From positions 49,654 through 113,653 of IMG/VR virus record IMGVR_UViG_3300035670_000060: a stretch of DNA of 64,000 nucleotides; one strand, 5' to 3'. Shown piece by piece: positions 598-48,822 of the stretch (positions are counted from its first letter, which is position 1; every line of letters starts with the position of its first letter). Below the pieces are notes generated by a model, which was not told where the DNA came from, did not search any database, and was given only the letters and a program-made list of their open reading frames with translations. The position numbers and the translations under genes are program-made. Origin of the DNA: a virus.

Positions 598-605
598 TAT
601 TTATA
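598..605 (-). promoter_or_regulatory. T4-type late promoter for gp18
   Basis: TATAAATA on minus strand 50 nt upstream of gp18 start. Confidence 0.8.
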
Positions 606-5022: not shown

Positions 5023-5030
5023 TATTTATA
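5023..5030 (-). promoter_or_regulatory. Late promoter for gp13-gp17 operon
   Basis: TATAAATA 27 nt upstream of gp13. Confidence 0.8.
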
Positions 5031-5032
5031 AT

Positions 5033-5245
5033 TTAACAGATTAGTGCTTTGCCATCAATCAATAGTAAATTGCCTTTGCATGCCAGATTCCATTTTTTTA
5101 CACCATGCTCGTAAGTACATTCGTCATACACGGGCACGTTGATTTCTAAACTTTTAGCTAAGACTTCTTCGCCATTTTCAAAAATTCTCCAGAAAAAATC
5201 AGTGTCGCCGTGCTGTGTATTAAATCGAATATGGTATTGCTTCAT
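5033..5245 (-). CDS. Hypothetical protein, last gene of sulfo/glyco operon
   Basis: 70-aa ORF coupled (ATGA) to upstream gene. Confidence 0.7.
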   Translation of the reverse strand: MKQYHIRFNTQHGDTDFFWRIFENGEEVLAKSLEINVPVYDECTYEHGVKKWNLACKGNLLLIDGKALIC

Positions 5246-6078
5246 TCAATTCCCATTTCTTTTCGAATTTTGGTTGCTGAAATAGCATGTATCGTATCAT
5301 CGAAAACTTCTTGTTCAATCTTGTAGCCGACATCTCTACCGTATGTGATGTTTACAATGTTTGGAACAATCAAAATTTCATACTGACCTTGATAGAGTGG
5401 ATCTAAGTCTCTTCGAATATAGTTTTTAACTTCTTCAATTGCAAATGGATTACTTCCATTCCAACCCTGACAATCACGAATCATGATACATACTTGACCA
5501 GTTTTTGCTAACGCTCTTTCAAATAACGCACGATGACCTTTGTGCCATGGTTGCCAACGACCTAACATCTGCACAGTTTCTTTGCGCCAATCAAAAGTTG
5601 GTCTTCTTTTACGACTTAAAATTGCTTCACCTACATACTGCACCCACTTTTCAGCATTCTTTTCGTTGATTCTAAAATCATAGATTTCTGGTGGCACAAA
5701 TGCTTTGTTCGTATCTTCATAACGACCAGCATCAATCGTATCCATCCAGATTGTCCAGTCTGCTTTAAAGTTGTGACGCATTTCAGCAAGTGGTGCTACA
5801 AAATCACAAATGACATATTCGCCAGTGCATCGCATTGCAAATTCTGCCATCCTCAACGACTGCCGAATGCGACCTTCTTTTGAAAAGTCCCAATCATTGA
5901 ATCGCTTTCGAATGTCATCAGCATTGAACCAATCAACTCGTGCGTTCATTCGAGGATATGGAGCGTCACTAAGTGTGTTTAAAGGACGCTCTCCGTGAAT
6001 CTCAAGATAAGTCTTTAATCGTTCTGCAAAATATGTTTTACCTGAGCCAGGCAAACCCATAATCAATATTTTTTCCAT
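5242..6078 (-). CDS. Adenylylsulfate-kinase-like domain fused to HIGH-family nucleotidyltransferase (putative minimal PAPS synthase)
   Basis: GLPGSGKT P-loop, NADDIRK, DFSKEGRIRQ, ICDFVAP (CysC-like); C-terminal GRWQPWHKGH and ISATKIR motifs; start may be 6078 or 6093. Confidence 0.75.
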   Translation of the reverse strand: MEKILIMGLPGSGKTYFAERLKTYLEIHGERPLNTLSDAPYPRMNARVDWFNADDIRKRFNDWDFSKEGRIRQSLRMAEFAMRCTGEYVICDFVAPLAEMRHNFKADWTIWMDTIDAGRYEDTNKAFVPPEIYDFRINEKNAEKWVQYVGEAILSRKRRPTFDWRKETVQMLGRWQPWHKGHRALFERALAKTGQVCIMIRDCQGWNGSNPFAIEEVKNYIRRDLDPLYQGQYEILIVPNIVNITYGRDVGYKIEQEVFDDTIHAISATKIRKEMGIE

Positions 6079-6095
6079 TATATAAAACTCCAAAA

Positions 6096-6341
6096 TTATT
6101 GAGCGATTGCTGCACTTCCCTGAGTGATTGCGTTATGCAAATCAGAAATGTCTTCGCCAGATCCGGACACATCTGGATTTCCAACTACTAGTTTAAGATG
6201 CTCAACATTTCGATCAATGTTTCCACGAAGTTCGTCAGAAAGTGTTGCGCCTGCTGCAATCTTTGCTAAAGAATCTTCAATGACCCAAACGCTATCTCTT
6301 GCTGCTCGAATTGTATATAGAACTTCTGGTGTTGCTGGCAT
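6096..6341 (-). CDS. Hypothetical protein (DSV..RNVEHL motif, possibly fibre-associated)
   Basis: 81-aa ORF with SD GGAGG. Confidence 0.7.
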   Translation of the reverse strand: MPATPEVLYTIRAARDSVWVIEDSLAKIAAGATLSDELRGNIDRNVEHLKLVVGNPDVSGSGEDISDLHNAITQGSAAIAQ

Positions 6342-6342
6342 A

Positions 6343-7293
6343 TTAGCCTCCTATGAGTTTAGTATCTTCGGTTTCTGTTGGTGCATCCGATTCGGATGTT
6401 GGTTCTTCAAAATTTGCGTCAATCTCTTGTAGATTTCTCCAAAATGCTGTATTTTCACATCGCTTTAAAATTTCTTCTGAAAGAACTTCTTTAGGATCGA
6501 CTGACGCTCTATTTATTGTACTACGAACTTCATGCATGTCTGCAAGCCCATAAACTTCAGCATCTTTTTCTTTATGTATGTTTTCAATTTTGCTAAAGTC
6601 ATGTGCGAAATATTCTTCACCAAGAAATTCATAAATCTTTCGCATTGTATCATCTGGATTCTCAAGCAAATCGTTATATTCAATGAAGTGAAGATTTTTC
6701 TGTCTACCTTCCATTAGTGCTTGTTGAATGCCAAAATAGCTTTGGCCAAGAATTCCATTTGGACTAGCTAAGAACGTACATCGATTATCATCGTTTAAAG
6801 GCGTGTTTGTTTTGATAAGCATTTCATCAATGAAATTAATCTTACCTTCACCGCCGTATGGATTTCTGCGTTGCATTGTAATAAATGATGTAAGAATTTC
6901 TTCAATGTCACGAACTGGGCATAAAACTTTTGGTTCAATTCCAAAATATCCAGGAATGTAATGTAGTCGATTCACCCATGACCGATTCTTGTCAATGATG
7001 ACAGGCTTATCTACGTCAGAATAATAATTATCCATGACACTAGAAATAATTTTTGCAGCTTGTGGTAACTTAGGAAAAGCCATAAAAAGTTCATCGTTTG
7101 AAAAAGAATTTTCAAGCGTGAGCATTGTAGGTACCACAGGAGAACTTGGACCAGAATAGACTCTTGGATTTTGATTTAGAATCGATGATAGAAGTGTACT
7201 TCCTGATCTTGGAAGCCCAGACATAAAGTAGTATGTCTTCATTGACGCTCTCATCATTTCTTCTCTTATAATTTCTTTAATCATTTCTTTCAT
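6343..7293 (-). CDS. Sulfotransferase family protein
   Basis: SGLPRSGSTLL PAPS-binding loop, IIDKNRSW, CPVRDIEEILTS, FIEYNDLLENP..MRKIYEFLG. Confidence 0.9.
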   Translation of the reverse strand: MKEMIKEIIREEMMRASMKTYYFMSGLPRSGSTLLSSILNQNPRVYSGPSSPVVPTMLTLENSFSNDELFMAFPKLPQAAKIISSVMDNYYSDVDKPVIIDKNRSWVNRLHYIPGYFGIEPKVLCPVRDIEEILTSFITMQRRNPYGGEGKINFIDEMLIKTNTPLNDDNRCTFLASPNGILGQSYFGIQQALMEGRQKNLHFIEYNDLLENPDDTMRKIYEFLGEEYFAHDFSKIENIHKEKDAEVYGLADMHEVRSTINRASVDPKEVLSEEILKRCENTAFWRNLQEIDANFEEPTSESDAPTETEDTKLIGG

Positions 7294-7304
7294 TGTTCAT
7301 CACC

Positions 7305-8207
7305 TCATTGTTGATTGTTTACAGATTCTATAATTTTATTTATATCAAATAATTTAACGTCATCTGTATAAGGATATTCAATTTCATTTCCGTTGAAGTC
7401 AAAGTCAAATAAGTAACTGCCAGGAAGTTTGAAGTTATATGGCACATCGGTACAAATATTATCATGCATATCATAACCAAAAACTTTAGGGCTTGTACCA
7501 TTCCATAAAACAGTGGATTTCTTTCTAAGTGCTGCTGCTGCATGTTGCAACGAAGAGTCTATAAGAATTCTCTTTTTGCTATGTAAAAGAATACTAAAAA
7601 ATTCCATTAGACTGAGTGCTTGTTGCTGCGTAGCAAAAACATGTTCAGCGCCTTCAAGTTTTGGTGAGTTCATCTTGGTAACTTGGTAAATATGATAGTC
7701 TTTTTTGTAATAGTCTATCAATTCTTGTGCTAATTCTGGCGGCATGTCTCTTGTCCATGAATAAGGCTTAGCATCTGTTGTCATTGGACCGCCACTTGTA
7801 TGTATAACCATGATAGGCTTTTTTCTCAACCAAAATTTTCTTGAAAGATCCCATTGAAGTTTATTAAACTTTACCTCTGGGCGCTCATTGTCGAATTTTA
7901 ATTGATGCATTTCGCACCAATTTTCAATCAGTCGTTTCCGTTTATGTATATGATTTGTCGTATAGTATGGTTCGTGATGAAAAATCAGAGAATCTTTATC
8001 TTGAATGTATTCTTGGTAGAAATATTGTGTGCCACCTAACAGAAAAACTCTGTCAACAAAAGAAAGATTAATAAAAATATCAGGATATGCACATACGACA
8101 ATGAGTTTTCTGTCAGGAAAATTGTTTTTAATTGCTTTTGCAACAGCGGTTGCTGCTACGTGTTTTCCAATACCGCCTTGAAGATGAAAAATACTATATT
8201 TCTTCAT
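7305..8207 (-). CDS. GT9-like (heptosyltransferase-fold) glycosyltransferase
   Basis: N-terminal GGIGKH..ATAVAKAIK..FPD and C-terminal IDSSLQHAAAALRKKSTVLW, matching the GT9 DSG.MH.AAA motif. Confidence 0.75.
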   Translation of the reverse strand: MKKYSIFHLQGGIGKHVAATAVAKAIKNNFPDRKLIVVCAYPDIFINLSFVDRVFLLGGTQYFYQEYIQDKDSLIFHHEPYYTTNHIHKRKRLIENWCEMHQLKFDNERPEVKFNKLQWDLSRKFWLRKKPIMVIHTSGGPMTTDAKPYSWTRDMPPELAQELIDYYKKDYHIYQVTKMNSPKLEGAEHVFATQQQALSLMEFFSILLHSKKRILIDSSLQHAAAALRKKSTVLWNGTSPKVFGYDMHDNICTDVPYNFKLPGSYLFDFDFNGNEIEYPYTDDVKLFDINKIIESVNNQQ

Positions 8208-8208
8208 A

Positions 8209-8937
8209 TTATAACCTTTCTTTTGTTGCTTTCACGATGTCCCACGTTCTCGCATTTTTGATATGATGAAAATGATATGCATTACTTGCGTCTAAAGCTA
8301 GTCTTTTAGTTATGTCATAATTTTTATGCTCTGAAACAAGCGTTTTTGATATCTCACCTTTGATCCTATTCGTCTTGAATATGTATATATGTTCGTTGTT
8401 CTGCGTCAGATATTCATCACCGAACCAGATTTGATATAGTCTTGGTATCACCTTATACGAAGTTCGCTTTATAAACATACATACACCAAATGCATATCCT
8501 TGACCACCTATAGGTTGAGTTTTATCATGTTTGAGTTTGAACAATTCATCTTCACCTTCATGAACACCAACTGTATAATTATCTGGTGTGTTTTTTAAAT
8601 GAACGCCTACAACATCAATCTCTTTAAAATCTACTGCTGAGAAATCACGAAATACACTCGATTCAACTTCTATGTCATCATTGATAATGGAAAGAACATT
8701 CGCTTTTGATCTATAGTAACCTTCATTCCACGAAGGATTTACGTAGTTGTTTTTACCATAACAAATGATATGCAACTTAGATGAATTCAATTCGTCAACT
8801 CTTTTTGGTCGATTTGCTTTGTCATTGTCAATCAAAAAGATATTTCCAATATACTCGCATTCAATGTAGGTGTCAAGTGCGGATAGAAAATTTTTAGACT
8901 TCCACATTGTAGGAATTACAACGTCAATTGTATTCAT
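8209..8937 (-). CDS. GT2-family glycosyltransferase
   Basis: IDVVIPTMW, FLIDND, NYVNPSWNEG, IINDDI, WFGDE. Confidence 0.8.
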   Translation of the reverse strand: MNTIDVVIPTMWKSKNFLSALDTYIECEYIGNIFLIDNDKANRPKRVDELNSSKLHIICYGKNNYVNPSWNEGYYRSKANVLSIINDDIEVESSVFRDFSAVDFKEIDVVGVHLKNTPDNYTVGVHEGEDELFKLKHDKTQPIGGQGYAFGVCMFIKRTSYKVIPRLYQIWFGDEYLTQNNEHIYIFKTNRIKGEISKTLVSEHKNYDITKRLALDASNAYHFHHIKNARTWDIVKATKERL

Positions 8938-9596
8938 AAATCTTCTATGTTATAATTTTTCATTGTCGATTCAAAATTACCTTTATACATCTTATTGCCT
9001 AAATGGTAAACTGTATGATTCGGTTTGATCCAGATTTTGTAACCGAGTTCTCGAATCTTATTTGAAAGTGTAATATCTTCACCAACAAAAGCTCCGTTTA
9101 TGTATGTAAATTCACATATGTTTTTTAATTTCTTACTACGAAAATCTAATTCAACATTAGAGATCCATAAATCTTTAATGACTTTTTTGGAAAGTTTTAG
9201 AAAGCCTGTTCCTACACGAGATGCTGTCAGATAACCATCTTTCGGATCTCTCTTGACCACACTGTTAAAATAAACGTTATACTGTATATTTGTATCACCT
9301 TTATTTACAACTGGTATAGCGATGACATCTTTTGGTGAAGAAAGAATTTCAATCAATGCTTTCTCATCCCACATTTCATCATCGTCAATGAATACCATTG
9401 CATCATAATTTTCTTTGTATGCTAAATTAAAGAGTTCATTTCTGGCCATTGGAAGAATACTTTCATTGGCCAGAAACACTACATTGATTGACAAATCGTG
9501 TTTCAATCCTAACTTAATAGATTCACATAAACTATGAACGAAATATGCGTCTACTTTTTGATCTAAACATGGTGTAGCAATTAATATACGTTTCAT
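8934..9596 (-). CDS. GT-A fold glycosyltransferase-like protein
   Basis: ILIATP, SILPMARNEL, MVFIDDD, VGTGFLKL, GEDITLS, VYHLG. Confidence 0.75.
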   Translation of the reverse strand: MKRILIATPCLDQKVDAYFVHSLCESIKLGLKHDLSINVVFLANESILPMARNELFNLAYKENYDAMVFIDDDEMWDEKALIEILSSPKDVIAIPVVNKGDTNIQYNVYFNSVVKRDPKDGYLTASRVGTGFLKLSKKVIKDLWISNVELDFRSKKLKNICEFTYINGAFVGEDITLSNKIRELGYKIWIKPNHTVYHLGNKMYKGNFESTMKNYNIEDL

Positions 9597-9631
9597 AACA
9601 TACCTTTTCTTTCATCATTGTTCACACAGCC

Positions 9632-9660
9632 ATTGTATATATTGTCACATAAAATGTCAA
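9632..9660 (-). promoter_or_regulatory. Sigma70 promoter of glyco/sulfo operon
   Basis: TTGACA-17 nt-TACAAT on minus strand; -35 overlaps the fibre gene stop codon. Confidence 0.8.
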
Positions 9661-12600
9661 GTAACTCTTTTCTCTAGTGCTTCAAGTCTACTCTTAAGTG
9701 CATCTATTTCATTCGACATCTCATTAATTGTATTGACAAGAACTGGTATCAAATGATCATTTGTCATTTGAAGTTTTTCCGGCATCTCTTTACTTACGAT
9801 GACAGGATTGTCACCTTCAGCCTCTAGAATGTTTTGTGCGCTGAAACCATATCGTTTTCTGGTATCCGTAATTTCACCAGTGTCTCGATTTTTAAATGAG
9901 AATTCAATTGGTGTAATCTTTCGAAGAAAATCTCTACCGTGTGGAACAGGTCCGAAGATTGTTTTGTCACGAACATCTGAAACAGTAGTCCAACCAATTT
10001 GAATTTGAGCGCAAGTATGTGCATTATTGCCCATGATGATGCGATTTGATTCAGTTGTGATATTAGCTAGACCAATTGTTCCAACAGCAGCATTGCATCC
10101 AAAGAAAAGATTGTTGCTGCCAGTGGTGTTACAGTAACCAGCACATTGACCAGCAAAGATGTTATTATTGCCAGTGGTGTTAGCAGCACCAGCAGCATTA
10201 CCAATGAAATTATTGTTAGAGCCAGTGGTGTTATTTAAACCAGCACTTTGACCAAAGAAATTATTACTACAGCCAGTGGTATTGCCATAACCAGCACTTG
10301 AACCAATGAAATTATTAAAACCGCCAGTGGTATTGTAGCGACCAGCACTTGCACCAAAGAAATTATTACTAGTGCCAGTGGTGTTGTTTAGACCAGCACT
10401 TGCACCAAAGAAATTATTACTAGTGCCAGTGGTGTTACTGCAACCAGCATTCACACCAATGAAATTATTGTAACTGCCAGTGGTGTTCTTGTAACCAGCA
10501 CGATTACCAATGAAATTGTTATGTCCGCCAGTTGTGTTATAGTAACCAGCACGATTACCAAAAAAATTATTTTGGCTGCCAGTGGTATTATAGTAGCCAG
10601 TTTGCCTACCAAAGAAATTATTATAATTGCCTGTGGTATTATAGAAACCTGCTAATGGACCAAAGAAATTGTTACAATTACCTGTTGTGTTACAGTAACC
10701 AGCACATGCACCAAAGAAATTATTAAAAAATCCAGTGGTATTATTGTTACCAGCCACGTAACCCATAAAATTATTATAAGCGCCTGTGGTGGTATTGCGA
10801 CCAGCACATAAACCAGCGAAGAAGTTGTAACAGGCATCGTTACAGTAACCAGCTGCTAAACCAATAAAAATATTACCAATGCCTGTGACGTTAAAGCGAC
10901 CTGCATCTTTTCCAAAGAAAGTATTATTGCTACCAGTTGTATTTTTACAACCAGCAAGATTACCAATGAAAGTGTTATAACTGCCATTAGTATTACAGAG
11001 ACCAGCACATTGACCAATGAAAGTATTGCCACTGCCAGTGGTATTGCCATAACCAGATACAAGACCAAAGAAATTATTATGACATCCAGTGGTGTTGCTG
11101 GAACCAGCTTGATTACCAAAGAAATTATTACAACTGCCAGTGGTATTAGTTATGCCAGCAGCATTACCAAAGAAATTATTATGACAGCCACTGCTATTGC
11201 CGCGACCAGCATATCGACCAAAGAAATTATTAAAACAGCCAGTAGTATTGTAGCGACCAGCACAACAACCAATGAAATTATTATAACTGCCAGTGGTATT
11301 GTAGCGACCAGCACAAAAACCAATAAAATTATTACTAGTGCCAGTGGTGTTAGAGAAACCAGCACATTGACCAAAGAAATTATTATTACAGCCAGTGGTA
11401 TTGGAGCGACCAGCACTTGGACCAAAGAAATTATTATTGCTGCCAGTGGTGTTACAGAAACCAGCCCATCTACCAAAGAAATTATTAAAACAGCCAGTGG
11501 TGTTATTGCGACCAGCACATAGACCAAAGAAATTATTATAGCTGCCTGTTGTGTTAACCAAACCAGCACTATTACCAATGAAATTATTATTGCTACCCGT
11601 CGTGTTACAGTAGCCAGCCGACTCACCAAAGAAATTATTATGACTGCCTGTTGTGTTAAAGCGTCCGGTATAATAACCAAAGAAATTATTATTGCTGCCT
11701 GTTGTGTTCAAACAACCAGCACTTCCACCAAAGAAATTATTCTTCCAGCCTGTTGTGTTACATAAACCAGCACAACGACCAAAGAAATTATTATAGCTGC
11801 CTGCTGTGTTAAAGTAACCAGCACTTAGACCAAAGAAATTATTACAGCCGCCTGTTGTGTTACAGAAACCAGCACTTTGACCAAAGAAATTATTATTACA
11901 GCCAGTGGTGTTACTGTAACCAGCAGCGCAACCAAAGAAATTATTGTGATTGCCAATTGTATTGGAAAAACCAGCACTTTGACCAAAAAAGTTATTCCAA
12001 GCACCACTGATATTACACATACCAGCACAAAGACCAGCAAAGAAGTTACAACCGCCAATGATATTGTAGCGACCAGCATTTAAACCGATAAAAGTATTAT
12101 GACAGCCTGTTGTATTACAGAAACCTGCACATCGATTAATAAAGGTATTATATTTGCCATTGGTATTAAAACGACCAGCATCACGACCAAGGAAAATATT
12201 ATCATTACCATCGATATTAGCGTAACCAGCACATTGACCAGCAAAGAAGTTATAACTGCCAGTGATGTTACAGTAACCAGCAGCGCAACCAAAGAAATTA
12301 TTATTACATCCAGTGGTATTATTAATACCAGCAAAATGACCAAAGAAATTATTAAATCTAGCAGTGGTGGTAGAACGACCTGCTTGATTACCAATGAAAG
12401 TATTACCAAATCCAGTGGTATTAGCGTAACCAGCATAGTAACCAATGAAATTATTAGAACCACCAGTGGTGTTACAGTAACCAGCACATGTACCAGCAAA
12501 GAAGTTATGACAGCCAGTGGTATTACTGTAACCAGCAAGATAACCAAAGAAATTATTCATACTGCCAGTGGTGTTACTGTAACCAGCACATAAACCTGCG

Positions 12601-14186
12601 AAAAAGTTATGACTACCAGTGGTGTTACATAAACCAGCACATGCACCAATAAAAGTATTATGACTGCCAGTGGTGTTAAAGCGACCAGCGCATAAACCTG
12701 CGAAAAAGTTATAGCTACCGTAGTTATTGGCTAAACCAGCACTGTTACCGAAGAAATTATTGTGACTGCCAGCATTCAAATAACCAGCAAAATGACCAAA
12801 GCTATTATTATTACAACCAGTAATGCTAAGAAAACCAGCATAGCGACCAAGGTAATTATTATGACTGCCAGTGGTATTGGAGCGACCAGCTTGATTACCA
12901 AAAAAGTTATTATAACAACCAGTGGTGTTAAGACGACCAGCAGCTAGACCAAAGAAATTATTAAAACTGCCAGTGGTGTTATTGCAACCAGCACTTTGAC
13001 CAAAGAAATTATTACCAGCGCCAGTGGTGTTACGAAAACCACTATTACATCCTAAAAAGTTATTAAAACTGCCAGTGGTGGTGGCAAAACCTGAAGAAAA
13101 ACCTGCGAAGAAGTTATGACATCCAGTGGTGTTACAGAAACCAGCACATTGACCGAAGAAAATATTACCAGCGCCAGTGGTGTTATTGTAACCAGCATAT
13201 TGACCAATGAAAATATTAAAACATCCTGTGGTGTTGTAGCGACCAGCACAGGAACCAGCAAAGAAGTTGTGACTACCAGTGCTATTGGCATAACCAGTAT
13301 AACAACCAAAGAAATTATTATGAGATCCTGTGGTGTTATTGAGACCAGCAGCAAGACCTAAAAAATTATTCCAACTACCTGTAGTGTTATTTCTACCTGA
13401 ATTATTACCAATGTAATTATTATTACAGCCTGTAGTATTGTTACGACCTGTATATTTTCCAATAAAATTATTGTTAGATGCTGTTTCATTATATAATCCA
13501 GCACCTTTACCAAAGAAATTATTGTAAGAACCTGTGCTATTATACTTACCAGCTTCATGACCAAAGAAATTGTTATAACATCCGCTACTATTACATCGTC
13601 CAGCATTTAAACCAAAAATATTATTAAAACATCCTGTAGTGTTAATACAACCAGCATTTTGACCTAAGAAAATGTTCCAACTACCAGCTAAGTTGCATCG
13701 GCCAGCAGATTCACCTAAAAAGATATTACTGACGCCAGTGGTGTTACAAAAACCAGCTCGTGATCCTGCAAAAAAGTTGCTGCTTCCTCCACCAAAATTA
13801 CATGACATGCCACTTATTATATTGCAATTACCTTTAGTTACAAATGCACTTGTAGTTTTTTCTGTATACCATGCACCACCTGATGCAAAAATTCGTGTGC
13901 CTTGTTCTCTATACAATATAATAGATGCTCTACCGTCATCGATAGTTTCAGCACCTTGCGGATCAATAGTTAAATTAAACGCTACGTTATTGAAAATTTT
14001 AAATGACATTCCCTCGGAACTTGCTGCTGGAGGTAAATTGATCGTCCCCGCTGCTGTTCCGTTATAAACAATGATGTCATTATTATCTTCAGGAGATACC
14101 GTATATGCACTCGCAGTGATATTTTTGGTAAGTTCTCTATAAGGAACTTGACTGTTGAGTGCCGATATCTGATAAGGTCTTGCCAT
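9657..14186 (-). CDS. Long fibre protein with ~90 14-aa beta-helix repeats and C-terminal Peptidase_S74 intramolecular chaperone
   Basis: NTTGxxNxFFGxxAGxx repeats; WTTVSDVRDK..YGFSAQ..LIPVLVNTINEM + coiled coil. Confidence 0.88.
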   Translation of the reverse strand: MARPYQISALNSQVPYRELTKNITASAYTVSPEDNNDIIVYNGTAAGTINLPPAASSEGMSFKIFNNVAFNLTIDPQGAETIDDGRASIILYREQGTRIFASGGAWYTEKTTSAFVTKGNCNIISGMSCNFGGGSSNFFAGSRAGFCNTTGVSNIFLGESAGRCNLAGSWNIFLGQNAGCINTTGCFNNIFGLNAGRCNSSGCYNNFFGHEAGKYNSTGSYNNFFGKGAGLYNETASNNNFIGKYTGRNNTTGCNNNYIGNNSGRNNTTGSWNNFLGLAAGLNNTTGSHNNFFGCYTGYANSTGSHNFFAGSCAGRYNTTGCFNIFIGQYAGYNNTTGAGNIFFGQCAGFCNTTGCHNFFAGFSSGFATTTGSFNNFLGCNSGFRNTTGAGNNFFGQSAGCNNTTGSFNNFFGLAAGRLNTTGCYNNFFGNQAGRSNTTGSHNNYLGRYAGFLSITGCNNNSFGHFAGYLNAGSHNNFFGNSAGLANNYGSYNFFAGLCAGRFNTTGSHNTFIGACAGLCNTTGSHNFFAGLCAGYSNTTGSMNNFFGYLAGYSNTTGCHNFFAGTCAGYCNTTGGSNNFIGYYAGYANTTGFGNTFIGNQAGRSTTTARFNNFFGHFAGINNTTGCNNNFFGCAAGYCNITGSYNFFAGQCAGYANIDGNDNIFLGRDAGRFNTNGKYNTFINRCAGFCNTTGCHNTFIGLNAGRYNIIGGCNFFAGLCAGMCNISGAWNNFFGQSAGFSNTIGNHNNFFGCAAGYSNTTGCNNNFFGQSAGFCNTTGGCNNFFGLSAGYFNTAGSYNNFFGRCAGLCNTTGWKNNFFGGSAGCLNTTGSNNNFFGYYTGRFNTTGSHNNFFGESAGYCNTTGSNNNFIGNSAGLVNTTGSYNNFFGLCAGRNNTTGCFNNFFGRWAGFCNTTGSNNNFFGPSAGRSNTTGCNNNFFGQCAGFSNTTGTSNNFIGFCAGRYNTTGSYNNFIGCCAGRYNTTGCFNNFFGRYAGRGNSSGCHNNFFGNAAGITNTTGSCNNFFGNQAGSSNTTGCHNNFFGLVSGYGNTTGSGNTFIGQCAGLCNTNGSYNTFIGNLAGCKNTTGSNNTFFGKDAGRFNVTGIGNIFIGLAAGYCNDACYNFFAGLCAGRNTTTGAYNNFMGYVAGNNNTTGFFNNFFGACAGYCNTTGNCNNFFGPLAGFYNTTGNYNNFFGRQTGYYNTTGSQNNFFGNRAGYYNTTGGHNNFIGNRAGYKNTTGSYNNFIGVNAGCSNTTGTSNNFFGASAGLNNTTGTSNNFFGASAGRYNTTGGFNNFIGSSAGYGNTTGCSNNFFGQSAGLNNTTGSNNNFIGNAAGAANTTGNNNIFAGQCAGYCNTTGSNNLFFGCNAAVGTIGLANITTESNRIIMGNNAHTCAQIQIGWTTVSDVRDKTIFGPVPHGRDFLRKITPIEFSFKNRDTGEITDTRKRYGFSAQNILEAEGDNPVIVSKEMPEKLQMTNDHLIPVLVNTINEMSNEIDALKSRLEALEKRVT
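10100..13800. repeat. 42-bp degenerate tandem repeat array (fibre 1)
   Basis: Recurrent ccaaagaaattatt...gccagtggtgtta...accagca units. Confidence 0.9.
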
Positions 14187-14673: not shown

Positions 14674-17600
14674 TTAAAATCCTCCAAAATTAGTTGCTAA
14701 GTATAAATTGCTTCCCGGTGAAGATCCTGAAGATCCTATGGGAGATCCATTGACACACATACCTGTGCTGTCCACTCGAATTCGTTCTGTTGATCCTGCT
14801 GCAAGAATGATTGTACCCGACAAAGTTGATGTTCCTGATACACTACCTAAAATAATATTATTATTACCTGTTGTAATTGATGAACCTGCACTTTGACCTA
14901 TAAAAATATTATTGTTTGCTGTAGTATTGCCAGTGCCCGCACCAGATCCAATAAAGGTGTTATAAGATCCAGATGTATTATTCCATCCAGCAATAGATCC
15001 CATAAAGATATTATTGTTTCCGATCGTATTTTGAATGCCAGCACTTGGCCCCATAAAAATATTGTTAACACCTACTGTATTTCTGAAACCTGTTAAATGA
15101 CCAATAAAAGTGTTATAACTGCCAGTAGTATTGCAGCAACCTGCATTACGACCAAAGAAATTATTACTTGCACCTGAAACATTAAAGAAACCAGCACCAC
15201 AACCAAAGAAATTATTATGACTGCCACTGGTGTTACAGTAACCAGCACACAAACCAGCAAAGAAGTTATAACTGCCAGTATTATTATTGTAACCAGCACT
15301 GTTACCAATGAAATTATTATGACAGCCAGTGGTATTGGAGCGACCAGCAGTTAGACCAAAGAAATTATTATGACATCCAGTGGTATTATTTTGACCAGCA
15401 TACGAACCAAAGAAATTATTACAACTGCCAATGGTATTATTACGACCTACTAGATAACCAAAGAAATTATTATTAGAGCCGGTAGTACTAAAAAGACCAG
15501 CACAAAAACCAAAGAAATTATTACAAGTGCCAGTGGTGTTACTGTAACCAGCACATGCACCAATGAAATTATTATTACTGCCAGTGGTGTTACAGAAACC
15601 AGCACTTCGACCGAAGAAATTATTATAACTGCCAGTGGTGTTAGAGAAACCAGCACAGAAACCAAAGAAATTATTCTGACCGCCAGTGGTGTTAGAGCAA
15701 CCAGCATTTCTACCAAAGAAATTATTAGAACTGCCAGTGGTGTTAAAGATACCGGCACGATTACCAAAGAAATTATTCTGACCGCCAGTGGTGTTATATG
15801 AACCAGCAAAAACACCAAAGAAATTATTATAACTGCCAGTGGTGTTAGAGAAACCAGCACGATTACCAATGAAATTGTTATAAGCGCCAGTGGTGTTACA
15901 GCGACCAGCTAATTGACCAAAGAAATTATTAGAACTGCCAGTGGTGTTACTGCAACCAGCAAGATTACCAATGAAAACATTATGGCAGCCAGTGGTATTA
16001 CAGTAACCAGCACAATTACCAGCAAAGAAGTTAAAACAGCCAATGGTATTATAGCGACCAGCACTTGAACCAAAGAAATTATTGTGACTGCCAGTGGTGT
16101 TACAGTAACCGGCACTTGCACCGGCAAAGAAGTTATTTGTTCCTGTTGATGCTTGTGCTGGTGCTCCATAACCAGCATTTTCACCTAAAAATATGTTATT
16201 ACTACCAACGTGTCTGGTTCCAGCAGCCTGTCCTATGACAACATTACATGTTGGACCACCAAGGGCAAAACTGCCTGCTGCATGACCTATATAAACATTT
16301 CCCACTCCTGTAGTCATACATTGACCTACAAGAGTGCCCATTAGAACATTATTACTGCATGTGTTTTTTCGACCTGCGTTCCAACCTAAATATACGTTAT
16401 AAAACGCTTCAGCATTACAATGTCCTGCATAAGCGCCTAAAAATGTGTTCCCGGAACCACAAGTATTGTATCTACCTGTATTAGTTCCAATAAAAGTATT
16501 TAATTTTCCGTATATGCCGTCTGGTTGAATTGTTCTTTCACCAGAAAATCTACCTATAAAAATACTATCTGCGCCAGTAGTATTACAATAACCAGCACAT
16601 TGACCAGCAAAGAAGTTATAACTGCCAGTAGTGTTATTTTGACCGGCACTGTTACCAAAGAAATTATTACCTGCGCCAGTGGTATTGAAGCGACCAGCAT
16701 ACATACCAAAGAAATTATTATAACTTCCAGTGGTATTGCAATAACCAGTGCTTTGACCAATGAAATTATTATGCTTTCCAGTGGTATTGAAGGTACCAGC
16801 ACATGCACCAAAGAAATTATTGTAGGAACCTCCGTTAATTCTATATCCTGCAAATGCGCCAAATAAATTATTATGACTGCCGATGTTTAATTGAGTCGAA
16901 TTGAGACCATAACCAGCACTACAACCAAAGAAATTATTATTAGATCCTATTGAATTACAAAATCCAGCAAAAGATCCTATGTAATTATTATTGGTACCTG
17001 ATGTATTAAATCTACCAGCACATTGACCAGCAAAGAAATTGCGTTCACCGTGACCTAAACCTAAACATCCTCTTGAATTACAGAAGCCCGCTTCAAGACC
17101 AATAAAAGTATTATGACAACCTGTTGTGTTTTTGAAACCAGCACAACGACCAGCAAAGAAGTTATGACTGCCAGTAGTGTTATATGCACCAGCTTGAAAA
17201 CCAAAAAAGCTGTTATGTGCTCCAGTTGTATTACAAAAACCGGTTCCACATCCTATGAAAATATTACAACCGCCAGTTGTATTATAATTACCAGCACTTG
17301 ATCCAGCAAAGAAGTTAAAACTTCCAGTAGTGTTACATGCACCAGCTGCTGATCCTAAAAAAGTGTTATCTGATCCAGATGTGTTTTTATATCCTGCACT
17401 GTCACCTACAAAAATATTTCTTACACCAACTGTATTACAATAACCTGCGTTACATCCTAAAAAAGTATTCCAGCGACCTGATGTATTGCTAAAAGCAGTA
17501 CCACAACCAATGAAAATATTATGATTACCAGTGGTGTTACAGATACCAGCACATTGACCCGCAAAGAAGTTATCCGTTCCAGTGCCGCCAGTTCCGCTCA

Positions 17601-19011
17601 AACAGCTTGTAATATTTCTTGTACCACATACGGAAAATATGGAAGCTGGTATACTGATTCCTGTTAATGATCCACCATCACCAAAAAATTTTGTAGCGGT
17701 TATGTTATTAGCAGTAAAAGAACCTGAAGCATCTCTAGCAACAATTGTTGAAGCACCATTTGCTGACGCTGCTGTTGTTCTTGCGTTATCTAATGTTCCA
17801 GTTGCTACGTTAGATGCGTTTAAAAATGTGAGCCCAGAACCATTACCAGAAATAGATGTTGATGTTATAGCGTTAGCAGTAAAAGAGCCTGAAGCATCTC
17901 TAGCAACGATTGTTGAAGCACCGTTAGCGGATGCTGCTGTTGTTCTTGCGTTATCTAATGTTCCAGTTGCTACGTTAGATGCGTTTAGATTTGTTAAAGT
18001 ATTTCCACTTCCAACAAAATGAAGTGCAGATACGTTTCCTGATACAGATAGACTATCGCCAACTGTGTTTAGTGTAGCATCTCCAAGATATAATGTGGAT
18101 CCAGAAAGATACAAGTCTTTAAATCTGGATGAACTACTTCCTAAATCATACGTGACATCTACTGAAGGTATTACATTTCCTGATACAGTAAGATTTCCAA
18201 GAGATACGTTCGCAATTCTATACTGTGCATTTGATGTATCAATGTTTGTGTTTGTTCCAGGCTCAATAGGATAATTTTCAAAGAATTTCCATACGCCATC
18301 TGTAGCATCTCTGAACAAACCTGTGTGTACGTTAGCACTATCCGAAAGTCTTTGATAATGTCCAATAAAACCAATATCAACTGCATCGGTTACATTATTT
18401 TTTGCTAACTGAATAATATTATCTTCAACGATCAGATTGTTTGCTGTAACGGAAACTACATTACCTGTGAATGATACGTTTCCTGTTACAACAAGGTCCT
18501 GAAAAGTAACTGATGATGCTGTTCCTAAATCTTGGCCAATCGACGCTACATAGGAGCCACCATCTGTTGTTACAATTTGAAAGTTTGCATTACTGCTATG
18601 ATAATTATACGCTGATACTGACGCAACGTCTACGTTTGCTGCTGACGTTACACGACCCTGAGCATCAATAATAAGTTGAGGTATTTTTGTTGTTGATCCG
18701 TATGTTCCTGATGTTACCGTTGTATTATCTAAATTAATGATTAAATTATTAGAACTTGTAGCTATGCTTGTTGAAATTCCATTCGTGCCACCAATTGTAA
18801 AAACTTCTGATGAAATTGCTACATTATCTGTGCCAGTATTCGCTGAAACTTGAAGTATGCCTGCATTGCCAAGAATACTATTTGCCGTAACAACGTCTAC
18901 AACAAGCGTTCCTGTACCATCACTGAGTTTGTTAACTTCAGAAATGATATCATTGGTGCGAATTCTAAATTCATTGAATGTATTTGAAGTGACTACATTT
19001 GCAATTGCCAT
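14674..19011 (-). CDS. Long fibre protein with N-terminal virion anchor and ~60-65 14-aa repeats
   Basis: SNTFNEFRIRTN anchor, GTYGSTTKIP..DAQGRVTSA, YDLGSSSSRFKDLYLSG, NTTG repeats. Confidence 0.85.
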   Translation of the reverse strand: MAIANVVTSNTFNEFRIRTNDIISEVNKLSDGTGTLVVDVVTANSILGNAGILQVSANTGTDNVAISSEVFTIGGTNGISTSIATSSNNLIINLDNTTVTSGTYGSTTKIPQLIIDAQGRVTSAANVDVASVSAYNYHSSNANFQIVTTDGGSYVASIGQDLGTASSVTFQDLVVTGNVSFTGNVVSVTANNLIVEDNIIQLAKNNVTDAVDIGFIGHYQRLSDSANVHTGLFRDATDGVWKFFENYPIEPGTNTNIDTSNAQYRIANVSLGNLTVSGNVIPSVDVTYDLGSSSSRFKDLYLSGSTLYLGDATLNTVGDSLSVSGNVSALHFVGSGNTLTNLNASNVATGTLDNARTTAASANGASTIVARDASGSFTANAITSTSISGNGSGLTFLNASNVATGTLDNARTTAASANGASTIVARDASGSFTANNITATKFFGDGGSLTGISIPASIFSVCGTRNITSCLSGTGGTGTDNFFAGQCAGICNTTGNHNIFIGCGTAFSNTSGRWNTFLGCNAGYCNTVGVRNIFVGDSAGYKNTSGSDNTFLGSAAGACNTTGSFNFFAGSSAGNYNTTGGCNIFIGCGTGFCNTTGAHNSFFGFQAGAYNTTGSHNFFAGRCAGFKNTTGCHNTFIGLEAGFCNSRGCLGLGHGERNFFAGQCAGRFNTSGTNNNYIGSFAGFCNSIGSNNNFFGCSAGYGLNSTQLNIGSHNNLFGAFAGYRINGGSYNNFFGACAGTFNTTGKHNNFIGQSTGYCNTTGSYNNFFGMYAGRFNTTGAGNNFFGNSAGQNNTTGSYNFFAGQCAGYCNTTGADSIFIGRFSGERTIQPDGIYGKLNTFIGTNTGRYNTCGSGNTFLGAYAGHCNAEAFYNVYLGWNAGRKNTCSNNVLMGTLVGQCMTTGVGNVYIGHAAGSFALGGPTCNVVIGQAAGTRHVGSNNIFLGENAGYGAPAQASTGTNNFFAGASAGYCNTTGSHNNFFGSSAGRYNTIGCFNFFAGNCAGYCNTTGCHNVFIGNLAGCSNTTGSSNNFFGQLAGRCNTTGAYNNFIGNRAGFSNTTGSYNNFFGVFAGSYNTTGGQNNFFGNRAGIFNTTGSSNNFFGRNAGCSNTTGGQNNFFGFCAGFSNTTGSYNNFFGRSAGFCNTTGSNNNFIGACAGYSNTTGTCNNFFGFCAGLFSTTGSNNNFFGYLVGRNNTIGSCNNFFGSYAGQNNTTGCHNNFFGLTAGRSNTTGCHNNFIGNSAGYNNNTGSYNFFAGLCAGYCNTSGSHNNFFGCGAGFFNVSGASNNFFGRNAGCCNTTGSYNTFIGHLTGFRNTVGVNNIFMGPSAGIQNTIGNNNIFMGSIAGWNNTSGSYNTFIGSGAGTGNTTANNNIFIGQSAGSSITTGNNNIILGSVSGTSTLSGTIILAAGSTERIRVDSTGMCVNGSPIGSSGSSPGSNLYLATNFGGF
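14850..17590. repeat. 42-bp degenerate tandem repeat array (fibre 2), same unit as fibre 1
   Basis: Same repeat consensus as 10100-13800. Confidence 0.88.
17708..17987. repeat. Direct repeat, 2 x ~115 bp, period 165
   Basis: NASNVATGTLDNARTTAASANGASTIVARDASGSFTAN encoded twice. Confidence 0.9.
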
Positions 19012-26838: not shown

Positions 26839-26846
26839 TATTTATA
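26839..26846 (-). promoter_or_regulatory. Late promoter for gp8/fibre operon
   Basis: TATAAATA upstream of gp8 SD AAGGAG. Confidence 0.8.
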
Positions 26847-38716: not shown

Positions 38717-38724
38717 TATTTATA
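38717..38724 (-). promoter_or_regulatory. Late promoter for gp48-gp53-hub operon
   Basis: TATAAATA in the divergent gp48/gp4 gap. Confidence 0.75.
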
Positions 38725-48814: not shown

Positions 48815-48822
48815 TATTTATA
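48815..48822 (-). promoter_or_regulatory. Late promoter upstream of SleB-like gene
   Basis: TATAAATA 38 nt upstream of start. Confidence 0.65.

Follow-up and report, generated by a model that had tools for sequence, protein, structure and literature searches.

We analysed a 64-kb stretch of DNA, the window, which is the right-hand part of the 113.6-kb virus contig IMGVR_UViG_3300035670_000060 in IMG/VR (CheckV completeness 63%). The source is an uncultured, aquatic T4-like myovirus; the best cultured matches of its gp15 are Pelagibacter phage HTVC008M and the Methylophilales phages Melnitz, at an identity of only ~40%. Positions 5033-9596 are filled by seven co-oriented open reading frames (ORFs) on the minus strand, g1 to g7, joined by overlaps of 4 nt or separated by gaps of 1-17 nt. 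This cassette encodes three glycosyltransferase-like proteins (g1-g3), a sulfotransferase (g4), an adenosine 5′-phosphosulfate (APS) kinase domain fused to a minimal adenylyltransferase domain (g6) and two small proteins (g5 and g7). Its 5′ neighbour is the gene of a 1509-aa repeat fibre (fibre A, 9657-14186, minus strand), and its 3′ neighbours are gp13, gp14 and gp15, identified by PF11649, PF16724 and phrog_211, respectively. A preliminary description of the window had reported seven co-oriented genes between fibre and neck genes, and all seven ORFs are indeed present. The strongest new point is g6, a probable non-canonical synthase of 3′-phosphoadenosine 5′-phosphosulfate (PAPS).

The same description called the operon self-contained. 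This holds for the predicted supply of PAPS and not otherwise: the cassette has no sugar-nucleotide, flippase, polymerase, ligase or export genes. No membrane segments were predicted in any of the seven proteins. Used as DNA queries against the phage collection, the cassette and its flank gave no match.

The g6 fusion and its association with sulfotransferases

The start of g6 was taken as the ATG at 6078 after its homologues (5242-6078, minus strand), the program-made ORF list giving a TTG at 6093. An AlphaFold model built from a 53-homologue alignment is confident and shows two domains (pLDDT 93.8). The N-terminal domain (residues 1-158, 5605-6078) matches PF01583 with 28.7 bits, for a cut-off of 21.1. 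Moreover, APS kinases account for 17 of the 18 best matches of a g6 profile in the PDB (E 1.5e-15 to 3e-12), and almost all top Foldseek matches of the model are APS kinases, which are thus closer than other P-loop kinases. Residues D54, R57, F65, R70, Q73 and P96, invariant or nearly so, align with the motifs DGDxxR, GFS..R..N and FISP; other residues stand in place of the initial Asp of DGD and of the Ser of FISP, and the lid region is shortened. By sequence and predicted fold, this is a true APS-kinase domain.

The C-terminal domain (residues 167-278, 5245-5580), only ~110 residues long, resembles a cut-down HxGH adenylyltransferase of the NadM/PPAT-like kind and is a candidate sulfate adenylyltransferase. 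Its conserved set (G173, R174, Q176, H179, H182, S267 in ISAT, and R272) corresponds to the motifs GRxQPxHxGH and ISxTxxR, and an extra conserved loop, Y-G-R-D-V-G-Y, is also found. By profile the domain matches NMNAT at E 3e-11, and 110/164 residues of 1f9a can be aligned, the sequence alignment ending after ~55 residues. The NMNAT fold takes ~165-180 aa, an NMN-binding middle segment among them, and ~50 of its residues, including the unalignable part, are missing here; every NCBIfam NMNAT model scores far under its cut-off on g6. Similarly, PF01747 (Sat) has no match anywhere in the phage contig, and comparison with the Sat part of 2gks gave insignificant local matches only, at HxxH and ISGT. 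The domain would thus work like a sulfurylase without being a member of the Sat family. The fusion of an APS kinase and a nucleotidyltransferase had already been named in the preliminary description, and profile and structure comparisons support both domains.

In phage genomes, g6 is linked to sulfotransferase genes. A sulfotransferase lies within 10 kb in 48 of the 80 phage loci seeded with g6, always upstream and on the same strand except in L071, which has an additional one downstream. The stop of the sulfotransferase gene and the start of g6 overlap in L090 and L094. These linked sulfotransferases span different subfamilies and are only 26-34% identical to g4. As a positional control, we took 42 loci seeded with gp13, each extending 6 kb or more upstream and sampled regardless of what the island upstream of gp13 contains. 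Both genes were found in eight of them and neither in 34, at the same genome position, with not a single case of one gene alone (Fisher's test, 8.5e-9; 1.7e-6 after collapse to 5 lineages). Three IMG/VR contigs (L035, L041 and L047) carry g6 twice in tandem just 5′ of gp13, as paralogues of about 316-327 aa and 282 aa that follow one or two sulfotransferases.

The fusion, or a split pair, is also found in SAR11, SAR86 and many soil Alphaproteobacteria, where its direct neighbours belong most often to sulfotransferase families. For example, a SAR11 locus reads DegT - g6 - Sulfotransfer_1, and in SAR86 a sulfotransferase gene lies directly upstream of g6. In the SAR86 version the two domains are encoded by separate, overlapping genes, for a ~140-aa kinase and a ~130-aa transferase (e.g. 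L242, L248; G009:C1:1170249-1171011). Among 61 sampled SAR86 genomes, strong matches to Sulfotransfer_3 occur in 59 and the g6 pair in 57, so that the two genes of the split g6 nearly belong to the core gene set of this abundant marine clade. Sat was found in 0/61 of these genomes, and CysD in a single one (G038), beside a CysNC fusion; G038 is among the four genomes without the g6 pair. One SAR86 record titled complete chromosome carries two sulfotransferases and the g6 pair, with no Sat and no PAPS_reduct-family gene.

The linkage in phages, the gp13 control and the SAR86 pattern together form the signature of non-orthologous displacement, and for this reason we consider it quite likely that g6 is a non-canonical PAPS synthase whose mini-domain makes APS. 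It would apparently be an undescribed and very small enzyme. The closest known kind is the PAPS synthases (human PAPSS1/2, 1x6v; Aquifex Sat-APS kinase, 2gks; CysDN-CysC, NodPQ and RaxPQ). Compared with these canonical enzymes, and apart from the shortened kinase lid, g6 differs in its second domain, which has ~110 residues instead of the ~390 of Sat and points to a NadM-type NMNAT/PPAT-like origin, not to Sat or CysD.

Sulfotransferase, glycosyltransferase-like and small genes

The sequence of g4 (6343-7293, minus strand, 316 aa) makes it with certainty a PAPS-dependent sulfotransferase of the Sulfotransfer_3 family, as had been called before: it matches PF13469 at 8e-15 (56.1 bits, cut-off 27), PF00685 at 1.5e-11 and phrog_27463 at 1.5e-79. 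The PAPS-binding motifs are a 5′-PSB loop, P28-R-S-G-S-T33, and a 3′-PB pair, R128...S136; P28-R29-x-G31-x-T33 and R128...S136 are invariant across 25 diverse phage homologues. Compared with the PDB, the family profile comes closest to TPST1/2 (E 3e-17, 209/274 positions), 10^6 better than the next family, with CurM ST (4e-11) and then the cytosolic SULTs (1e-6) following. No resemblance of this profile to carbohydrate sulfotransferases of known structure was detected; the PAPS loop of g4 gives a weak match to NoeE. The segment that we take to hold the catalytic Glu of TPST aligns with a non-conserved stretch of the phage family. The likeness to TPST does not fix the acceptor, but it would weaken the assumption of a glycan acceptor.

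Downstream of g4 lies g5 (6096-6341, minus strand, 81 aa), a small conserved protein for which library searches gave no family match. Its orthologues (38-57% identity) are found directly 3′ of the sulfotransferase gene in at least 17 loci; g5 thus travels with the g4-type sulfotransferase. The last gene, g7 (5033-5245, minus strand, 70 aa), likewise has no family match, and its orthologues (45-55% identical) directly follow g6 in 14/80 loci.

The glycosyltransferase calls of the preliminary description hold to different degrees for the three upstream genes. The g1 protein (8934-9596, minus strand, 220 aa) is GT-A-like by profile: it matches phrog_1574 at 1.9e-15, and a profile of 16 homologues finds the STIV A197 GT-A glycosyltransferase (2c0n) in the PDB with E 1.8e-4, over 114 positions spanning the DxD region. 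It has no Pfam match. A DDD motif is present at residues 71-73, with D71 and D73 conserved. For g2 (8209-8937, minus strand, 242 aa), the GT2-like call comes by way of an orthologue, the window protein having no Pfam match of its own. This orthologue (L004:2350-3699, 45% identical), fused to Methyltransf_24, passes PF00535 with 24.9 bits against a cut-off of 23.3; the g2 profile also gives weak matches to the PDB glycosyltransferases 9omm and ArnC, and N86-D87-D88 is invariant.

The evidence for g3 (7305-8207, minus strand, 300 aa) is weak, and we regard it as a GT9-like (heptosyltransferase-like) GT-B candidate. Its match to PF01075 (E 0.026, 14.3 bits) stays under the cut-off of 22, and its profile found no match among PDB sequences. 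Comparison by hhalign gave probabilities of 45% for E. coli WaaC and 38% for WaaF, over the donor motif D-S-x-x-x-H-x-A-A-A (D217, H222), and 76.6% (E 2e-5) for the PF01075-positive protein L180:104-955, which adjoins a g6 homologue. In addition, 45% of the ESM neighbour cluster of g3 is PF01075, and some homologues carry the JGI name ADP-heptose:LPS heptosyltransferase. What we take to be the N-terminal catalytic Asp of WaaC has no evident counterpart in g3. L180 itself is a 2.3-kb contig from a Melainabacteria metagenome-assembled genome (MAG) bin; its GT9 gene immediately precedes a g6 homologue that shares 58% identity with phage g6. The contig probably comes from a phage and was assigned to the bacterial MAG by a binning error.

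Promoters, fibres and the fibre/neck island

A sigma-70-type promoter-like site, TTGACA-17-TACAAT (9632-9660, minus strand, 11/12 consensus matches), overlaps the stop codon of fibre A and lies 36 nt 5′ of g1. Such sites are not in excess in this region (18 observed, 20.8 expected by chance). In L004 and L005/L006, the corresponding position is occupied by a perfect TTGACA-17-TATAAT within otherwise unalignable spacers; the site is not kept in every relative. At the other end, the late promoter of gp13, TATAAATA (5023-5030, minus strand), 27 nt 5′ of gp13, forms the downstream boundary. Both signals had been given in the preliminary description and are present. A second TATAAATA, not reported there, falls within the 3′-terminal part of g3 and precedes the start of g4 by 44 nt (7337-7344, minus strand). 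This T4-type late-promoter motif occurs six times in the window (598-605, 5023-5030, 7337-7344, 26839-26846, 38717-38724 and 48815-48822), always on the coding (minus) strand and in five of the six cases 25-51 nt 5′ of a gene start. Its overall frequency in the window is not above chance (6 observed, 8 expected). The placement suggests that the octamer is avoided elsewhere in the window and can be used as a late-gene marker for the source phage.

At about -50 of the sulfotransferase gene, (T/C)ATAAATA is retained in 11 of 17 distinct relatives, while adjacent synonymous sites vary. Because this conserved motif precedes g4, the distal half of the cassette (g4-g7) is probably also transcribed late, together with the structural genes. 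The host-type promoter that had been assigned to the operon therefore stands as a site and not as the sole expression signal. Expression would start from this promoter 5′ of g1 and be reinforced late from the TATAAATA 5′ of g4.

Fibre A consists of 14-residue NTTG..FFG..AG repeats and bears a C-terminal S-D-x-R-x-K motif; at its end (9657-9900), the stretch T-V-S-D-V-R-D-K leads into a short tail that resembles a coiled coil. The motif is presumably that of the self-cleaving intramolecular chaperone domains of phage fibres and endosialidases. Fibre A reads as a genuine fibre, of which the mature form has probably lost the final ~100 residues. Fibre B (14674-19011, minus strand, 1445 aa) is a second NTTG-repeat fibre and a possible substrate. 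The richness of the fibres in N-x-T/S had been offered as a hint of glycosylation. Fibre A contains 77 such sequons (46 +/- 5 expected) and fibre B shows no excess; the excess of fibre A is the NTTG structural repeat itself, and sequon enrichment was ruled out as evidence of N-glycosylation.

The gene order fibre, g1-g6, gp13-gp15 is kept in at least 17 contigs at 60-80% protein identity, and similar fibres are found upstream of g1 in most cassette-bearing relatives. The nearest relatives of gp13 (88-90% identical) lie beside a short fibre that shares the N-terminus of fibre B, with neither NTTG repeats nor the cassette. The cassette thus co-varies with NTTG-repeat fibres. In lineages without g1-g3, one or two sulfotransferases and g6 come after, or are interleaved with, giant RCC1-repeat genes or families of 300-400-aa paralogues. 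The combination of sulfotransferase and g6 beside giant fibres occurs in thousands of environmental sequences.

The island between fibre and neck genes also hosts methyltransferases, a cytidylyltransferase-cupin protein, 2-oxoglutarate (2OG) oxygenases, carbamoyltransferases and radical-SAM enzymes, and in one lineage epimerases and a protein with a fucosyltransferase-like motif. In a cassette-bearing lineage (L008:563-5155, IMG/VR 3300013126_004080), the upstream fibre is replaced by sugar-nucleotide genes: an epimerase-family protein, which clusters with a Pfam Epimerase match, proteins of 392 and 326 aa, and the cytidylyltransferase-cupin protein. A further L008 protein has the motif S-S-F-S-W-W-G-A-W-L, which we take to be that of GT11 fucosyltransferases. 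The island is evidently able to grow into a fuller glycan pathway. A region of the single-cell-derived Kyanoviridae genome Marine virus AG-345-L05 (L003, MH319754.1, 114609-139493) contains two sulfotransferases, a g3-like gene, a phrog_1574 GT-A and a GT4. The same region holds a 2OG oxygenase, a DUF7936 protein and a NodU-type carbamoyltransferase amid Kelch- and laminin-G-type structural genes, and it has no g6; a cyanobacterial host that makes its own PAPS would fit this absence.

Possible acceptors of the sulfate, and meaning

We give a probability of about 50% to the reading in which the cassette is a cytoplasmic kit that decorates virion fibres, with g6 as the source of PAPS. The mini HxGH domain of g6 would adenylylate sulfate with ATP to APS, and the kinase domain would phosphorylate the 3′-OH of APS to give PAPS, from which g4, the TPST-like Sulfotransfer_3 enzyme, would move the sulfate onto an acceptor. 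The three putative glycosyltransferases (g1, GT-A; g2, GT2; g3, GT9-like) would attach sugars from host sugar nucleotides. The acceptors would most likely be the products of the adjacent upstream genes, the giant NTTG-repeat fibres, with the modification taking place before assembly or in its course; either the attached sugars or Tyr, Ser or Thr of the protein itself may receive the sulfate. Fibre A is accordingly only a proposed substrate. The module of sulfotransferase and g6 probably targets the neighbouring fibres in the cytoplasm; we favour the phage's own fibres because of the synteny, the co-variation with fibres, the late-promoter motif and the lack of export genes.

Several observations weigh against this reading. 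The sequon richness of fibre A is a mere by-product of its repeat, and the adjacency of fibres and cassette could partly mirror a shared accessory-gene hot spot. The host-type promoter and the homologues in bacterial surface-glycan islands would fit modification of the host surface equally well. One 383-kb phage genome rated 100% complete by CheckV (G004) has g6 and no recognisable sulfotransferase or PAPS reductase; indeed, in five g6-bearing phage records without a nearby sulfotransferase, none was found by PF13469, PF00685 or a custom profile, nor was a PAPS reductase. Conversely, a 236-kb genome (G006, rated 100% complete) carries g1-g5 without g6. Some g6 genes occur in other contexts, such as FolE - g6 - QueD, a clamp loader or ribonucleotide reductase (RNR). 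In L034, L050, L058, L060 and L080, g6 lies between GTP cyclohydrolase I and a QueD/PTPS-like gene, with no sulfotransferase within 10 kb and with an IMPDH/GMP-reductase-like gene, an FAD oxidoreductase, an epimerase and a GT1 in the vicinity; a role in making PAPS leaves this FolE/QueD context unexplained. Finally, distant g6 homologues are found among the early genes of Xylella and Stenotrophomonas phages.

The preliminary description held that the operon builds and sulfates a glycan. Sulfation with its own PAPS supply and the presence of three soluble glycosyltransferase-like enzymes agree with our results; the glycan as acceptor does not follow from them. Because TPST is the closest known family and many related phages have a sulfotransferase and g6 without any glycosyltransferase, direct protein sulfation would be as likely as sulfation of a glycan. 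In its strict form this variant, which differs from fibre decoration as outlined above in the acceptor atom, has Tyr or Ser/Thr of the fibres O-sulfated as by TPST or RaxST, the three glycosyltransferases being a separate, lineage-specific add-on; we think this form rather unlikely. The profile match to TPST1/2 and the RCC1-type fibre lineages, which carry one or two sulfotransferases and g6 with no glycosyltransferases, speak for it. TPST sites are acidic, whereas fibre A is very poor in Asp and Glu, and only 12 of its 65 Tyr have an acidic residue within five positions. The presumed catalytic Glu stretch of TPST is not conserved in the phage family, and in the source lineage g1-g3 and the sulfotransferase gene always form one compact operon. 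A precedent for sulfated fibre-like proteins was predicted by Iyer et al. 2010 (PMC2938197), in the form of tail-collar/collagen-like proteins encoded in bacterial operons with PAPS synthetases.

The cassette enzymes could instead modify precursors of the host lipopolysaccharide (LPS) core or capsule on the inner side of the membrane, with export by host machinery. Such remodelling, of which an early LPS form had been put forward in the preliminary description, could mask receptors, leading to superinfection exclusion, or keep progeny from re-adsorbing to lysed cells. This is unlikely in our judgement but a serious rival: the sigma-70-type site before g1 is a perfect consensus in some relatives and g3 shares the donor motif of GT9 enzymes, which classically act on the LPS core. 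Homologues of g6, the sulfotransferase, GT2 and GT1 also lie within surface-glycan regions of SAR11 and SAR86, and according to a preprint the Pelagibacter hypervariable region abounds in glycosyltransferases and sulfotransferases that build phage receptors. Against this stand the joint gain and loss of cassette and fibre genes at the fibre/neck junction, the interleaving of sulfotransferase genes with RCC1-repeat structural-type genes, the conserved late-promoter motif 5′ of the sulfotransferase gene, the lack of membrane or lipid-carrier enzymes in the cassette, and the many lineages that have a sulfotransferase and g6 and no glycosyltransferase.

It is doubtful that g6 makes something other than PAPS, its nucleotidyltransferase domain producing NAD, dephospho-CoA or an ADP-sugar that the kinase would then phosphorylate, and the sulfotransferase using PAPS or APS of the host. 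The phages rated complete that have g6 without a sulfotransferase, the FolE/QueD neighbourhood and a cytidylyltransferase-cupin gene inserted beside g6 in relatives are consistent with this alternative, as is HldE, a kinase and adenylyltransferase that feeds GT9 enzymes. The kinase, however, matches APS kinase specifically, with the substrate-motif residues conserved, and the C-terminal domain misses ~50 residues of the NMNAT fold. Moreover, g6 co-occurs perfectly with sulfotransferases at the gp13 island and accompanies them even where there is no GT9, and SAR86 has sulfotransferases with no Sat, CysD being confined to the one CysDNC genome that lacks g6. An HldE-like sugar kinase/adenylyltransferase, a NadR-like NR kinase/NMNAT and a CoA-synthase analogue were each considered for g6, and the APS-kinase-specific match, the sulfotransferase linkage and the SAR86 pattern make them less likely.

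We know of no sulfated DNA base. Hypermodification of DNA, in which the glycosyltransferases and perhaps the sulfotransferase would act on modified bases as in T4, is very improbable: the source phage is T4-like and phage glycosyltransferases often act on DNA (a review passage citing Pyle et al. 2024), but the 113.6-kb contig (63% complete) has no thymidylate-synthase or dCMP-hydroxymethylase family gene, the cassette lies within the late structural block and co-varies with fibres, and the sulfotransferase is TPST-like.

Decoration of fibres by such a kit has parallels in known systems. NodH/NoeE with NodPQ, and RaxST with RaxPQ, likewise bring together, at a single locus, a Sulfotransfer_3-type enzyme and its own source of PAPS to modify one secreted or surface product, and relatives of the cassette add NodU/NolO-type carbamoyltransferases and methyltransferases, a further likeness to Nod-factor systems. 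In contrast to these, the cassette belongs to a lytic T4-like phage, lies beside fibre genes and has no export or secretion genes. AAH and TibC are soluble GT9-like enzymes that use ADP-heptose for the cytoplasmic O-heptosylation of repeat adhesins. The GT9-like gene beside a long beta-solenoid repeat adhesin or fibre is a resemblance by family and context, with no TibC or AAH sequence match for g3. Virus-encoded soluble glycosyltransferases beside structural genes are also known from STIV, whose A197 (2c0n) is a detectable relative of g1, and from mycobacteriophages, for which virion glycosylation is known (Freeman et al. 2023); the substrates of those enzymes are virion proteins, modified in the cytoplasm. 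These systems are not known to involve sulfation, and their hosts and glycosyltransferase families differ.

Iyer, Aravind et al. 2010 (PMC2938197) predicted bacterial operons that join 2OG hydroxylases, sulfotransferases and PAPS synthetases with tail-collar/collagen-like substrates. These operons share with the cassette the scheme of a fibre-like protein modified with sulfate from a co-encoded PAPS source, and relatives of the cassette also have 2OG-Fe(II) oxygenases. They differ in being bacterial and in having canonical PAPS synthetases; here glycosyltransferases accompany the sulfotransferase, and the source cassette is without an oxygenase, the sole one lying far off on the contig. The function of phage sulfotransferases "remains unclear" according to a 2023 study of OM43 phages (PMC10580990). 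Our literature searches, made in a limited library, turned up no description of a sulfated phage particle, of fibre sulfation or of a mini PAPS synthase, in agreement with the earlier remark that no sulfated virion glycan has been described in tailed phages.

Taken as a whole, the proposal that the g6 mini-domain is a new class of sulfate adenylyltransferase and the missing sulfate activator of SAR86, SAR11 and others, and that phages carry g6 to sulfate their own giant fibres, is tentative and in our estimate falls somewhat short of even odds. If true, g6 would be the smallest known PAPS synthase, serving SAR86, many SAR11 and other bacteria that have sulfotransferases and neither Sat nor CysDN. 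An APS kinase with a tiny NMNAT-like domain would then be a third solution to sulfate activation, beside Sat and CysDN, and would explain where many sulfotransferases of streamlined marine bacteria without assimilatory sulfate reduction obtain their PAPS. Abundant aquatic T4-like and jumbo phages would make polyanionic, host-glycan-like appendages, a virion chemistry described for no phage, and such sulfated appendages could influence adsorption, sticking to marine gels and recognition by hosts.

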